Notes: generated by a model not told the origin, from the letters alone. A stretch of DNA of 64,000 bases from Euglena gracilis (GCA_039621445.1 CP154954.1:8000634-8064633); one strand, 5' to 3'; positions 39,701 through 45,700 are shown, counted from the first letter of the stretch. Translations and numbers: made by a program.

Positions 39701-42700
39701 AGCCATGTTTCAGCACATGATCCAATTTTGGACGGGCTGCAGTCCACCCATCCCCTCCCCAACTAGGGGGGAAACTGCAAATCCTGAAGCAGAAGAAAGC
39801 CTAGTTCTGGAGCATACAATTGTTTACCGACCCCCGGGGGGGGGGGGTCACTCCACTCTTCGAAAAACTAGTCAGTTACTTTTTTTGGGAAACCAGTCAG
39901 TTACTACCCTCTGGGGGCCGGGGGGGGAGGGGGGGTCGGCCACTCTGGAATCCAAAGGAAATTTGACCAAAAACATATAAAAAAGGACAAAAAATTCCGG
40001 CGCCTTCGGCGCCGGATCAACCTGGTGGTTTTTTGCCGACCCCCCCCCACCCGGGGGGGGAGGGGGCCGGGCCAAAACCAGTCAGTCACTCTGAAAAAAC
40101 CAGTCACCCACCCCCGGGGGGGGGGGGTCGGCAAGTGACTAAGTGATCGTATGTTCTGGAGCTGAAACCATCCCCCTCGCAAACCCACAATGCAAACAGG
40201 GACAAAACAGACCGCCATTTAGTGCGTATCACAACGTACCTGTGATACATTAATATTTTTTTGGTGATACGTATGTGATACATTAAATTTTTTTTGGTGA
40301 TACATATGTGATACATTAAAAAAATTTTGGTGATACATATGTGATACACAAATTCTCCTTGGTGCAACGTATAATAAAAGTTGTGAAACACAAATTTGTA
40401 AGATGAAAAATTTACAGACAAACGCAAGATGGTGCTCACCCGGGCTTCAGGAACTCAGGTTCCCATGGTTGCTGCAGCCCCACTTCCGTGGTGCTGACCT
40501 GTCTGCCAATACAGGTCCCCAGCACCTTTTTTTTCCCTCATTTTTTGAGGCATGCACGGGGTTTTCTTTGGGCGGGTCCCCGGCAGCCATATTTTTTGTT
40601 TGTTTTTGTCAGCAACTTCTCAGCCGCTATTTTTTAATTTTTGGTCGGGATGAGAGAATAATGGAACGAAGTCTTCTACACTGTGCTGGATGAAGCTGCC
40701 AACTGACCCTTCACGTCTTCCATAAGACGCCTCGCCCCTGGTGGAATTGCCATGCGGTGCCATGTCCTCAATTGTGATGAATCCAAAAATTTCCTTGCTG
40801 TCAAGGCCCTCCTTCCGAAGGGAACCTTCAAAACGACAGAAGACAGGATTCCGAGACACCAATTTCTCAAACCATGGACAAGAGTAATCACTTTTTTCCT
40901 TCTGTGTTGAAACGACCTCCAATGGCAACATCTCTTTCGGAACTTCCTCAACCCCGACTGATGCCACAGAAGATGATTCTGCAGAGGATTTGAGGTCCCC
41001 CTGCGCCCCACTCTCTTCAGATGAAGCGGAAAGACTACTTTCAATTCCTGGGTCAGCTTTTGTGCAAGCAGGCTTTTGCTTAAGGACCACCGGGGGGGGG
41101 GGGGGGTACTGGCTAGCCAATCGGCTAGACACTGGAAAAAGTGGACTAGCTAGACCCCCCTCCCCCGGGGGGGGGGGGGTCCGGGGGTCCCCCCGACTGG
41201 GGGAATGAGGTTTTTGACAGGTTTTTGGCTGATTTTGTTCCAAAAATTTCCAAAAATGGCCAAAAACGGGCATTTTTGGCCATTTTTGGGGGTCCCAAAA
41301 AAAATTTTCGGCGCTTCGCGCCGGTCACTGGAAAAAAAATCCACTAGCTAGCCCTGCTAGCAGACCCCCCCCGGGGGGGGGGGGTCTGCTAGAAAACCCA
41401 CTAGCCAAATTTGGACTAGCTGCAGTCCAGCCCCCCCCGGGGGGTACTGCAATCCCTTAAGCAAAAGCCTGTGTGCAACCGAAACAAATGACACTGTTTG
41501 AAGATCGCAATCGCGTTCTGTCGGGAAATGGCATCGATGAGCACTGAGTTTCTTGCGCACCTCATCAAAAGAGAATTTCATGTCCGTCAAGGCCAATTTC
41601 AAACGCTGCAAGTCCAACAAATGAACGAAGCTTTCGGTAAGCGATTCCGTGCTTCACCATCCACAAAACGGTTTTAAACAACATCTTTGCTTGCGGTATC
41701 AAAGCGGACGGAAGCTGAATAAAAGATTGGGTCAGACCTGTTTGTGGTCGATTCAACATGGCCTTTGCAGCAAGATGATACTTTCCCTCGCTATGTGATT
41801 TGATGTTACAGAAAGTGTAGACTTTTGTTGGCAATGCAAGAGAATTCCGTTTCTGACCCGTCCCCGTAACTTTTGGATTCTGACGAAATTGATGGCAAAT
41901 AGCACACCAAATGCCACGGGATGCTTCAAAACGCAACCAATCTCGGCCATTCTTCCATTCCATTCGGAACTGGTGGCAATTTCCTTTTCAGGTGGGCAGT
42001 GTCACTTTCAATTTCTTTTCTGGGGGGGCAGACTCTGATGAAGAACCCTCTCCAGGAGGCGAATCGGGGATGCCCTCGTCCTCCACGTTCCGCAGCTCCG
42101 CGCAGTTGTCCTCCAAAACATCATCACAAGAAAAATGCTCCATTTGTCTGCAGAGAGGCAAAGAAACCAGGATAAAACGTGGAACAGGAAGCTGAAAAAA
42201 CATTTTGATGTAAAAATGTAAAATTTTCTAAAAAATGGTGATACATATGTGATACATTAAAAAATTTTTGGTGATACATGTGTGATACATTAAAAAAATT
42301 TTGGTGATACATATGTGATACATTAATTTTTAGGCTGTGATACATGTGATACGTAAAAAAAAATTTTGGTGATACATACTAACTGGAGGTCTGGGACAAA
42401 ATGGTCGGCGTTTTGTACGGGGGTGGGACTGGAGGAGGAACAAAATGGTTTGCCCAACAAGTCCGGCGGAAGGATCCAGAAGGATCAGGTCTCAAGCGCA
42501 AGGCGCGCCAACAGATGTGTCCTGCTGACCTTGATGGGGGGCTTCTCCAGGTACCGGTTCAGGAGTGGCAGGAGCTTGTCGTGGTACTTGTGGCCCCACT
42601 GCGCGATCAGGGTTTGGGTGCAGGCCCCACCGGCAGGCGACAGGCGGGGGGGGGGGAGGATTCCAACTCTGAAAGGTCGCAAATGGAACATGCCGTTGAT

Positions 42701-45700
42701 GGGGCATCAGATGCTGATTGAATTGGCAAAGCATGGCTCGGTGCATTTATCATTATAATTATTTAAAAAAAACATAATTTCAAAAAGTGAAATTCTGATT
42801 CTGATTTATGAATTTACACCAGATTTTTCTGGGGATGATTGGGTAGAAGTTCATGTCATTCCCGCGCAAACTCTGGATCAAATTCATATGTATTTGAATC
42901 AAAACCAGAATCAAAGATTATGTCTTTATTTTTCCACTTTACATGGTGTTTGCGTTTGGTGACCCACCGGCGCCCGTGTCTCCGTCCGGGGGGGCCTGCC
43001 CGCCCGGCGGCCACAATGGCGGCCCGCACGTCGTCGCGGAAGTCGCACAGCGCCCGGCCGCACAGGAAGTCGAACACCGCCTCCAGCGACGGCCCCACAA
43101 AGTCCCCGATGCGCGAGAGGGCGTGGGCGACGCCGATACGCTGTGGCAGCGGAGAGAGTTGGTGAACAGCCATCGGACGAACAAATTGGTTGGGTTTGCG
43201 GGTGTTCACGGATGGATCGATGGCACATGCAGGTCCGCACAAAAAAAAATATTAATTATTCCTGATCGATTTTGTTGGGTGACCACCCATCGCGTGTGCA
43301 AAGCAGGATAACGACTCCGCTGGGTGCCTATGTCTGTAGCCAGGGATGACAGGCACAGATGTGACCCACAAACCTGTGCATCGGAAGGGGGGATTCGAGG
43401 GCACGGACCCCCAGTTGTTCCTCCAACTGCGGGACCGCAGCAAATGTACATGGTGCGCTGGGCTGCACAATTCACAGGTTGCGGTATTTTGCCTCTTTGT
43501 TGCCATTTCTGACTTTGAGATTTGAGAAGATCCTTTCCTGGCGGTGGGAGTCCCGCACACCTCCTGGCCGGTGCTGGTGCCCCCGAGGCTCTTCGCGTGC
43601 TCACTGTACACCTCCGCCAAGGTGTGCTTGACCTCCTCGGGGAAGCTGCGCAGCACCAGGGACGGTTTTCTGAGGTGGTCCGACGAACAAGAATAAAGAT
43701 GGTTCGGCAACGGTTTCCATATTTTTTTTGCTCCGCCAAATTACACAAATGCGTTTTGTGGGAGAGAGCAATCCTTCTGACGGCTGACTGCATAAACCCC
43801 CCTCCCCTAATAGTGCTGCGGGGCCAGTAGAGCTGTGGGTCCAAATAGTGCTGCACCCCCCGCCGGATGAAGCGAGCGTCCAATAGTGCTGCACCCCCCC
43901 AAATCACAGCAATGTGAAATGCGTAGCAGATGCACAAGGCGTGACACTTCACGCCTTACCCATTGCATTTGTCACATGACACAGCAGAAGTGGAAGCGGA
44001 CCCATCCAACAGGCTGGGGGCATCGGAGTGCGCCTCGCCAGCCTCAGAGTCGGACATTGAGCAGGCAAAAAGGGTGCCTGTGTGATGGGTCAGGACTAAG
44101 AGGCACCTGGTCCAATAATACGGCGGGTCCAAATAGTGCTGCACCCCCCCCCGCCGGCGGAGGCGGCCGTCCAATAGTGCTGCAGTGCAATACTATTTGG
44201 GCAGGGGGGTTTAGACGTTTAGATCTGGGAGATTCAGGAATTTACCCGCATGTTGCTTGGCAGATAAACCCCCAAAAAATTTGTGCCAGGTGGACTGGAG
44301 GTATTCCAAAAGGGCCCTGCCCAGCACTGTGGGTAGTGCAGCAGCGGCCGCGACCCGGATGGTGTCCTCCGCGTGGAACAGGTACGGGACGAGAAGTCGA
44401 GAGTATGCGATGGAGGGGCTTGGCTCAAGTCCGGATGGGGAAAGCTCTCCGTGTGGTCTACGGTGACCAGGCTTCTTTTTAAGACCCCCCACCCACCCAG
44501 CCAGGGGCTGACCCCCCTGGGACCCCCCCCTCAAAAAATCGGGCCGTCTGAGGGCTTTTCCCAAAAAAATTCCTGCGCTTCACACCTAAACCCACACCCG
44601 GGCTTCCCGCCCAGGACCCCCCCCCCGGTGGGGTCCAGCCCCGGACCCAGCCACCCACCCACCCCCCGTTCTGACTTAAAAAGGAGCCTGGCGGTTACCC
44701 TTGCAACAGGAAACCCAGGTGCCAACGTCGCCGGAGGAGGGAAGACGGCACCCCATCGTGCCGTACAGTGTGCGTGTCGCTCCCGGCTGGTGTTTTCAAA
44801 GCCAGGTCCAGAACCGTGGACAATTTTGGGTTTCTTTGGAGAAATACTTAAATGCCACTTTGGCCGTCTAAGTTGCCGGGCCCGGGAGGCCCAAAAACAT
44901 CAAAGGTTGGGTTTGAGAGCATCCATACAAGGTTTTGTAACAGTTCCAGACAAACGTCAGAAACGTACAAAGGCAGAAAAAAAAAACGTCTTCATGATAC
45001 ATGTGTGCTCTGAAAGCAATATTATAGTATATATAGTAATATATAGTAATATATAGTATATATTGTAGTATTTTCAGCCAGATACATCTAACTGCAGGCA
45101 AGGGGCAATAACTGTGGATCCTTAAACGGGTTGATTGATGTCCACACCAATGCCATCAGTCAGGAAAGCCCCTCCCCCCCCCGGTCACCACTTTAAAACT
45201 TTAAAAAAAAAATCTCTGGTGGGATCATTCAGGTCCCATGCACATCTGGCCATGAGCGAAGGCCCAGCCAGGAGGTATCTGAAGATCGGCAGATTCCCAG
45301 CGTCGGAGCTGAGCACTTTATGAGAGGATGGAATGGCGCGAGTGAAGGTCTCGATGGCAGTTTGTGAAGATTTTGGGGATCACACGATGCAAAACTGGCT
45401 TGACTTGGTCAAACGTCAAGCTAATATGCACAACATTGTCGAAATGTCCTGCCACATTTAACCAGACGATGGAACAATGCAGAGACAGATCATGCATCAT
45501 CAGCCAAATGTCCTTTTGTGCAGATCTGTGTGTGCCCATCTACATGCAGTGATTACGGACATGCATCATCAAACTCAGAATGTGTATGTACATGCGTGCT
45601 GGGGGTGGTCGCTTCTCCCAAACAGGTCGCCATTTGCTTGTGAGTTGGGTGTGTGACGGCATGCAGACGTGACAAAACCTGACACCGAGTCCCGGGCCAG

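Follow-up and report, generated by a model that had tools for sequence, protein, structure and literature searches.

The stretch of Euglena gracilis DNA analysed here (GCA_039621445.1 CP154954.1:8000634-8064633; 64,000 nucleotides, called the window below, with positions counted from its first letter) is nuclear DNA of Euglena type and carries a GCN1-like HEAT-repeat gene on its minus strand. The gene mixes conventional GT-AG introns with nonconventional (NC) introns, a class that makes up about 70% of the several hundred thousand introns of a euglenid genome. Inside one of the GT-AG introns lies a hAT-like transposable element that begins with CAG, finishes with CTG and is bordered by an 8-bp target-site duplication (TSD), and several MITEs (miniature transposable elements with inverted repeats) of the same build are found in the window. 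Most of the NC introns verified here also have CAG and CTG near their ends, set in from the splice junctions by 3 and 5 nt, and the sum of these two spacers is the length of the duplication. We describe the gene, its introns and the elements, and then consider whether introns of this kind may have arisen from insertions of elements of this kind.

RNA alignment covered positions 34100-50400, using two contig runs and two runs of raw RNA reads. Among the 15 joints listed of 103, at least 11 are introns of the GCN1-like gene, and with the sliding registers of the joints resolved, five of these introns are GT-AG and six NC. A profile of 45 GCN1 homologues aligns colinearly with minus-strand frames from 43194 down to 24796 (profile positions 1158-1794); the chain could not be traced below 24.8 kb, and weaker tblastn matches to GCN1 extend as far as 54.7 kb. 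A word-index search did not find the window's own GCN1 protein, the best homologue having an identity of 49%. All introns and exons of the gene lie on the minus strand. The GT-AG introns occupy 34366-37976, 38120-42529, 43141-43560, 45854-46472 and 47194-47829, each from an RNA joint; that of the second, 38118->42529, is present in two contig runs and six raw reads, and this intron holds both the hAT-like element and a MITE at 39269-39606. RNA joints together with the profile define the exons 42530-42615 and 43002-43140 (the latter at profile positions 1158-1224), RNA joints the exon 43561-43651, and contigs and raw reads a micro-exon of 29 nt (45269-45297) between two NC introns. One further joint, 39935/47204, was seen in one raw-read run and skips 7268 bases; many of the loose ends there are poly-G or poly-C, and the joint has the look of an artefact, of sequencing or of low complexity at G-runs, and not of a splice. 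Very long microsatellites occur in or beside introns of the gene (33307-34098, 50417-50605, 51093-51999 and 56647-58163), the types being (GT)n with about 400 copies, (GAGG)n, (GT/GTGT)n of about 900 bp and (CACG)n of about 1.5 kb.

The published euglenid NC code, 5'-N3CDG...CH'GN5-6|R, was proven by knock-in mutagenesis, with CAG/CTG and the 3- and 5-nt spacers being required (PMC12501133). In the window, four of the six RNA-verified NC introns have exactly the form N3-CAG...CTG-N5: 42616-43001 (GGG-CAG...CTG-CACCC, with a stem of 8 bp), 43652-44322 (GGG-CAG...CTG-GTGCT), 46587-47091 (GCC-CAG...CTG-GGGCC) and 48800-49347 (GGG-CAG...CTG-GTGGC). A fifth, 45299-45708, reads N3-CGG...CCG-N5. The first-pass annotation of this DNA had given N3-CAG...CTG-N5 with paired ends as the form of the NC introns at large, and this holds for the four, is varied in the fifth and fails in the sixth, an intron of 861 nt (44408-45268) that fits no code and encloses a MITE (44468-44690) near its 3' end. 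All six joints are seen in both contig runs and both raw RNA runs, and no GT/GC-AG register lies within the slide range of any of them. The stems, counted inward from the CAG:CTG pair, measure 5-9 bp, and the base that opens the next exon is a purine in all five code-type introns (a, g, g, a, a). The base after CAG or CGG, position 4, is G at 14 of 16 intron ends and at 9 of 12 element ends. In several NC introns, for example 42616-43001 and 46587-47091, the predicted helix also extends outward from the CAG:CTG pair into the spacers (GGG with CC, GCC with GGC).

The hAT-like element, 40208-42393 on the minus strand, is a non-autonomous, internally deleted remnant of about 2.2 kb. Between its CAG...CTG ends the terminal inverted repeat (TIR) matches at 16 of 20 positions (CAGACC... 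at both ends), and perfect copies of the 8-bp duplication GGACAAAA flank it at 40200-40207 on the left and 42394-42401 on the right (neither these copies nor the MITEs described below carry a strand designation). Tandem repeats of 33 bp lie subterminally, near both ends (40241-40348 and 42236-42378), and broken open reading frames (ORFs) run on the minus strand. The TIRs of hAT elements are short and begin with CAG (consensus YARNG), as do those of this element. Judged by its structure (8-bp TSD, short CAG TIRs, subterminal repeats and deletion derivatives), the element may be assigned to hAT. A lead from the protein side came from the ESM Atlas, in which the nearest clusters to the ORF at 41565-41987 are zf-C17orf113/DUF4371, families that we take to be hAT-derived (score 0.91, 171 shared features); 4 of the 10 best hits agree and the recognition value lies below the usual mark, and the assignment may point to the wrong family. 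The C-terminal ORF of the element scored 0.80 in the same resource, an uninformative result, and tblastn of a hAT-like ORF against phages, a target set that is uninformative here, gave no match. Contigs of two RNA runs span both halves of the element at an identity of at least 95% but join 41042 to 41620, by which 577 bases, including a nested MITE, are skipped or replaced. These matches indicate that related copies of the family are transcribed and that the present copy differs internally. As an intron the joint 41042->41620 was rejected: it has neither GT-AG nor CDG/CH'G geometry and is more likely a difference between copies.

Five MITEs with CAG...CTG ends were accepted. Two have perfect duplications, one at 22623-22926 with CAGGGG(T)n ends (TSD GCTGGCAT, 8/8) and one at 27591-27839 (TSD GTTGGGAA, 8/8); a third, with CAGGCTTTTGCTTAAGG ends, is nested in the hAT-like element at 41069-41471, and its flanks TGTGCAAG/TGTGCAAC agree at 7/8. 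The remaining two have flanks that agree at 6/8 and lie inside introns, at 39269-39606 in the GT-AG intron 38120-42529 and at 44468-44690 in the NC intron 44408-45268. One family, with CAGGCTTCTTTTTAAG ends, accounts for three of the five (27591-27839, 39269-39606 and 44468-44690). The first-pass annotation had described the hAT remnant with its 8-bp TSD and at least five such MITEs, and both descriptions hold, with TSD and TIR in combination exceeding what displaced flanks yield.

This last comparison was made among CAG..CTG pairs within 3 kb of each other, with flank windows displaced by an offset as the control. A flank repeat by itself is background: 47 pairs agree at 7/8 or better, against 46-55 in five offset controls. 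When a TSD of at least 7/8 is combined with a TIR score of at least 8, five pairs remain, against 0, 0, 0, 1 and 0 in the controls; a single one of them (24408-25123), with poly-G ends and a GCN1 exon inside its span, is probably spurious. With a TSD of at least 6/8, a TIR score of at least 9 and low-complexity ends removed, ten pairs stand against 1-5 (mean 2.8) in ten offset controls. The length of the duplication is sharply specific to 8: among 134 TIR-bearing CAG..CTG pairs, four duplications with at most one mismatch have length 8 and one has length 7, while lengths 9-12 have none. Pairs with a perfect TSD and a poor TIR (38154-38862, 48850-49175, 23526-25666, 56305-58672 and 58859-60787) were rejected as chance, since by flank identity taken alone the window does not differ from the controls.

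The anatomy of the elements, the geometry of the introns and the numerical identity between the two are thus direct observations in this DNA. Since 3+5=8, if an inserted element were removed according to the intron rule, one copy of the TSD, split 3+5, would go with it and the exon would be restored in either orientation of the insert; the geometric identity claimed by the first-pass annotation is real. From this a simple course of events can be proposed. A hAT-like element, whose inverted ends begin with CAG and finish with CTG, would insert into an exon and duplicate 8 bp of target, and in the pre-mRNA its two ends would pair. If the NC splicing machinery measures from the CAG:CTG helix, cutting 3 nt ahead of CAG and 5 nt beyond CTG, the cut would take out the element and exactly one copy of the duplication, and an exonic insertion would be born spliceable in either orientation, with the mRNA left unchanged. 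Over time the intronic halves of the TSD and the inner repeats would decay, until the minimal code remained. More speculatively, the 3- and 5-nt offsets would mean that the intron carries a 2-nt 3' overhang where the helix begins, a stagger of the RNase-III type, as cuts by such enzymes across a duplex typically leave a 2-nt 3' stagger. A stagger of this sort would point to an endonuclease-plus-ligase pathway, which would also account for circular introns.

If NC introns began as such insertions, their junctions may still carry traces of the duplication. We compared, for each intron, a left 8-mer (the last five bases of the exon and the first three of the intron) with a right 8-mer (the last five bases of the intron and the first three of the next exon), and took as the control cross-pairs, i.e. 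left and right 8-mers from different introns, which preserve the composition at each position. In the five RNA-verified code-type introns the identities in register are 2/8 (42616-43001), 7/8 (43652-44322), 3/8 (45299-45708), 4/8 (46587-47091) and 5/8 (48800-49347), with a mean of 4.2 against 3.0 in cross-pairs and 1.6-3.4 in shifted registers (permutation P = 0.016). When three homology-resolved introns are added (n=8), the mean is 4.0 against 3.1, with shifted registers at 1.5-3.6 (P = 0.025). Conventional introns (n=5 and n=10) behave differently, at 3.6-3.7 against 3.8-4.05 in cross-pairs and 1.0-3.4 in shifted registers (P = 0.79-0.95), and the AG|GT and AG|G consensus accounts in full for the identity at their junctions. 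A register-specific excess of identity therefore exists at the NC junctions, but it is small and leans on one intron. Position 5 of the 8-mers is identical in all five verified introns and in six of the eight NC introns overall, and position 6 is always a purine in the verified set.

The intron that carries the excess, 43652-44322, is the only one of the five with a convincing TSD-like flank. Its junction 8-mers, GTGCTGGG/GTGCTGCG, agree at seven of eight positions, as the first-pass annotation had noted, and the intron is verified by RNA; a slide of 6 nt is possible, and its interior holds a multi-copy motif. Two further introns had been put forward with flanks of 6/8, and for both the arithmetic is correct while the junction itself is in doubt. 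At 32369-32870 the acceptor is unsupported by RNA, with a rival at 32372, whose stem has 5 instead of 3 bp, the identity is 2/8, and by homology the top-scoring choice for the junction at 32.3-32.9 kb is a GC-AG alternative. At 50656-50749, beyond the RNA-covered stretch, the bases at +4..+6 are TGG, with wobble pairing, and not CAG. The low values of 2-4/8 given for the remaining junctions were judged correct from the comparison in register.

Outside the RNA-covered stretch, junctions were picked by profile score among candidates that kept the frame and complied with the rules, a procedure that ranked the RNA-verified intron first at three of three benchmark junctions. It yielded five conventional introns, three NC candidates with a 5-nt 3' spacer (30820-31387 at 4/8, 30292-30748 at 3/8 and 26845-27211 at 4/8, all on the minus strand) and three with a 6-nt spacer (28936-29681, 27276-27947 and, ambiguously, 29810-30197, likewise on the minus strand and chosen by profile score and frame). 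The first three are those added to the statistics above; the last three were omitted from them because a 3+6 arrangement has no defined 8-mer register. An ab initio dynamic programme for chaining exons (codon bias plus a bonus for high-scoring segment pairs) was exact for only 2 of the 11 RNA-verified introns and was discarded.

Elsewhere in the window, ORFs resembling those of a long-terminal-repeat retrotransposon run along the plus strand from 1959 to 6684: a weak protease match is followed by RVT_1 (E 1.3e-12), then by RT_RNaseH (E 2.7e-17) and last by rve integrase (E 6.6e-10). In the ORF 2559-3719 the N-terminus matches Dam N6-adenine methyltransferase (E 9.4e-8), and the ORF directly upstream has a weak match to C5 DNA_methylase (E 1e-3); by these domain matches, 1959-6684 may be a retroelement that carries a DNA methyltransferase. 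A second reverse-transcriptase ORF lies at 15329-16351 on the plus strand (RVT_1, E 1.2e-8), and the long ORFs at 19353-20624 on the minus strand have no Pfam match.

Descent of NC introns from hAT-type insertions is the explanation that we favour, because of a double coincidence: the terminal trinucleotides of the elements are the splicing motif of the introns, and the length of the TSD is the sum of the fixed spacers. Several findings weigh against it. The hAT-like element sits within a GT-AG intron and is no intron in its own right; indeed, all elements in the window lie within introns or outside exons, and none was seen to be spliced on its own. None of the six verified NC introns matches any other element over its whole length, and the check proposed by the first-pass annotation, to look for introns that are entire MITE copies, gave none here, in a comparison that spans only the 64-kb window, a small sample for families, and that is for this reason a weak test for introners. 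The intron 44408-45268 fits neither GT-AG nor CDG/CH'G in any permitted register. Past CAGG(C/G), intron ends are GC-rich and MITE ends T-rich. Three of the homology-predicted NC introns keep the frame only with a 6-nt 3' spacer (3+6=9, predicted by the profile alone), and a plain 8-bp insertion could not create such introns without further change. The assignment of the element to hAT meets difficulties as well. The hAT transposase combines a DDE core of the RNase-H-like type with a hAT dimerisation domain at its C-terminus; Pfam detects no transposase domain in the four ORFs of the internally deleted element, two word-index searches gave no transposase match, and a PDB sequence search returned nothing relevant for the hAT-like ORFs. 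The targets of hAT elements follow the consensus nTnnnnAn, which the TSDs of five elements satisfy at 5 of 10 half-sites, with A at position 7 in four of five and T at position 2 in one of five. Lastly, the excess at the junctions rests mainly on 43652-44322, and with this intron left out the mean falls to about 3.6, the control standing at about 3.1; the register comparison, which the first-pass annotation had proposed for the whole genome and which we ran locally against cross-pairs, does give an excess, but one driven by a single intron.

These findings can be accommodated in other ways. The NC code may be independent of transposons, CAG...CTG being a terminus that is common among hAT elements and that also suits the opening of a G:C-rich hairpin, with 3+5=8 a product of chance or convergence and the junction repeats a product of the pyrimidine|purine preference at NC junctions (PMC11282704). 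The identity at position 5 may reflect this known preference and not a remnant, and the constant purine at position 6 fits it too; four of the five verified code-type introns reach only 2-5/8, no intron in the window is a copy of a MITE, and the published flexibility of the 3' spacer (N5-6; PMC12501133), together with the three predicted 6-nt spacers, loosens the figure of 8. But chance would have to produce two independent matches at once, in the terminal trinucleotides and in the total extra length, with a duplication that is sharply 8 bp long and an excess in register that neither conventional introns nor shifted registers show; finding a flank of 7/8 among five to eight introns has a probability of about 0.03-0.04 at the match rate of cross-pairs. 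We regard pure coincidence as unlikely. We think it quite improbable that the host code is simply older and that only those hAT-type elements which fit its 3/5 ruler persist in genes, in which case most NC introns need not derive from elements at all. That the elements seen sit in introns of the GCN1-like gene would suit such a filter, as would the divergence of intron and MITE ends after five bases, and introns of the NC type are also present in diplonemids, suggesting old machinery (PMC12621601). The filter leaves the TSD-like flank of 43652-44322 unexplained, and filtering and origin do not exclude each other and predict the same geometry. The junction repeats might, finally, stem from another route of intron gain, such as the repair of staggered double-strand breaks or the return of circular intron RNA to the genome by way of a DNA copy, with the MITEs as bystanders. 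Direct repeats flank conventional and NC introns alike in E. agilis (PMC12501133), and the NC introns that are released have the form of circles (cited in PMC11282704); the repeats at conventional introns in the window are explained by their consensus, with no excess over cross-pairs, and neither route says why the ends should be CAG...CTG or the total fixed at 8. We regard this account as highly improbable.

We therefore return to the hAT-type insertion as the preferred explanation, and hold it, by a modest balance of the evidence, to be probable that insertions of hAT-type MITEs have been a genuine source of NC introns. A substantial share of these introns would then descend from such insertions. 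The wider proposition, that most euglenid NC introns are fossil hAT-type MITEs and that the NC machinery is an exact excision at the RNA level tuned to the hAT footprint, is tentative and in our judgement rather doubtful. The geometry is real and the origin plausible, while the local proof is weak; the observation that the first-pass annotation made is largely right, and its conclusion that NC introns are hAT-derived keeps the shared geometry and, as evidence of descent in this gene, the TSD-like flank of one intron. That interpretation is plausible and more sharply drawn than those in print. The window adds to it the anatomy and one good intron; it does not amount to proof.

The origin and the removal of euglenid NC introns are long-standing questions, and a MITE origin has so far been put in general terms only. 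Linking the 3- and 5-nt cut sites to the 8-bp footprint of a concrete type of transposon makes the idea sharply testable. If true, DNA transposons would have a second, non-spliceosomal route by which to create introns at a genomic scale, which would explain how genic insertions are tolerated in these very large genomes. A MITE-like origin of NC introns was proposed in 2014 (PMC3935182) and repeated since (PMC12501133, PMC12621601), and CAG/CTG have been taken for TIRs accompanied by junction repeats of a TSD-like kind (PMC11282704, Fig. 3D legend). Junction direct repeats were reported for 84.4% of E. agilis introns (PMC12501133), and by our arithmetic from the figures in that paper 81% of NC introns are slidable; this value cannot decide on the origin, since about as high a fraction would be expected if a pyrimidine|purine preference acted at both junctions. 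No paper found by a full-text literature search, to which subscription-only papers are not open, mentions hAT, a duplication of 8 bp or the sum 3+5, and the main texts of PMC12501133 and PMC11282704 contain the term 'hAT' 0 times. On this search the link to hAT and to 8 bp appears to be new, and the N3/N5 code, the junction repeats and the MITE origin were already known.

Compared with known systems, the introns described here stand closest to the published euglenid NC code (PMC12501133; earlier PMC3935182, PMC4770533), which five of the six verified NC introns obey, purine included; in the available parts of those papers the spacers are treated as random sequence of fixed length, and neither a transposon superfamily nor a duplication length is given. 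With the MITE-origin hypothesis (Milanowski et al. 2014, PMC3935182; PMC11282704) our proposal shares the reading of the intron ends as TIRs and of the junction repeats as TSD-like. It differs in that, according to the same sources, no euglenid transposon was known in 2014, whereas here there are actual CAG...CTG elements with TSDs of exactly 8 bp, and in that 3+5=8 ties these elements to experimentally defined cut sites. The introners of Micromonas and Aureococcus (Huff et al. 2016, cited in PMC11170887 and PMC11282704) resemble the proposed course of events in that the TSD of a DNA transposon supplies part of the splice geometry and insertion makes an intron at once; as described in the citing papers, they are cut by the spliceosome at GT/GC-AG and form near-identical families, whereas here a hairpin-guided, non-GT-AG rule applies and no intron family is seen in the window. 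The maize Ds element, acting as an intron (Giroux 1994, as cited in PMC3935182), is removed through cryptic spliceosomal sites and not by a rule of end pairing. With non-autonomous hAT elements of the Ac/Ds type, the elements of the window differ in that no hAT transposase domain is demonstrable in the remnant 40208-42393, and they share with them the 8-bp TSD, the short CAG TIRs, the subterminal repeats, the deletion derivatives and the accompanying MITEs.

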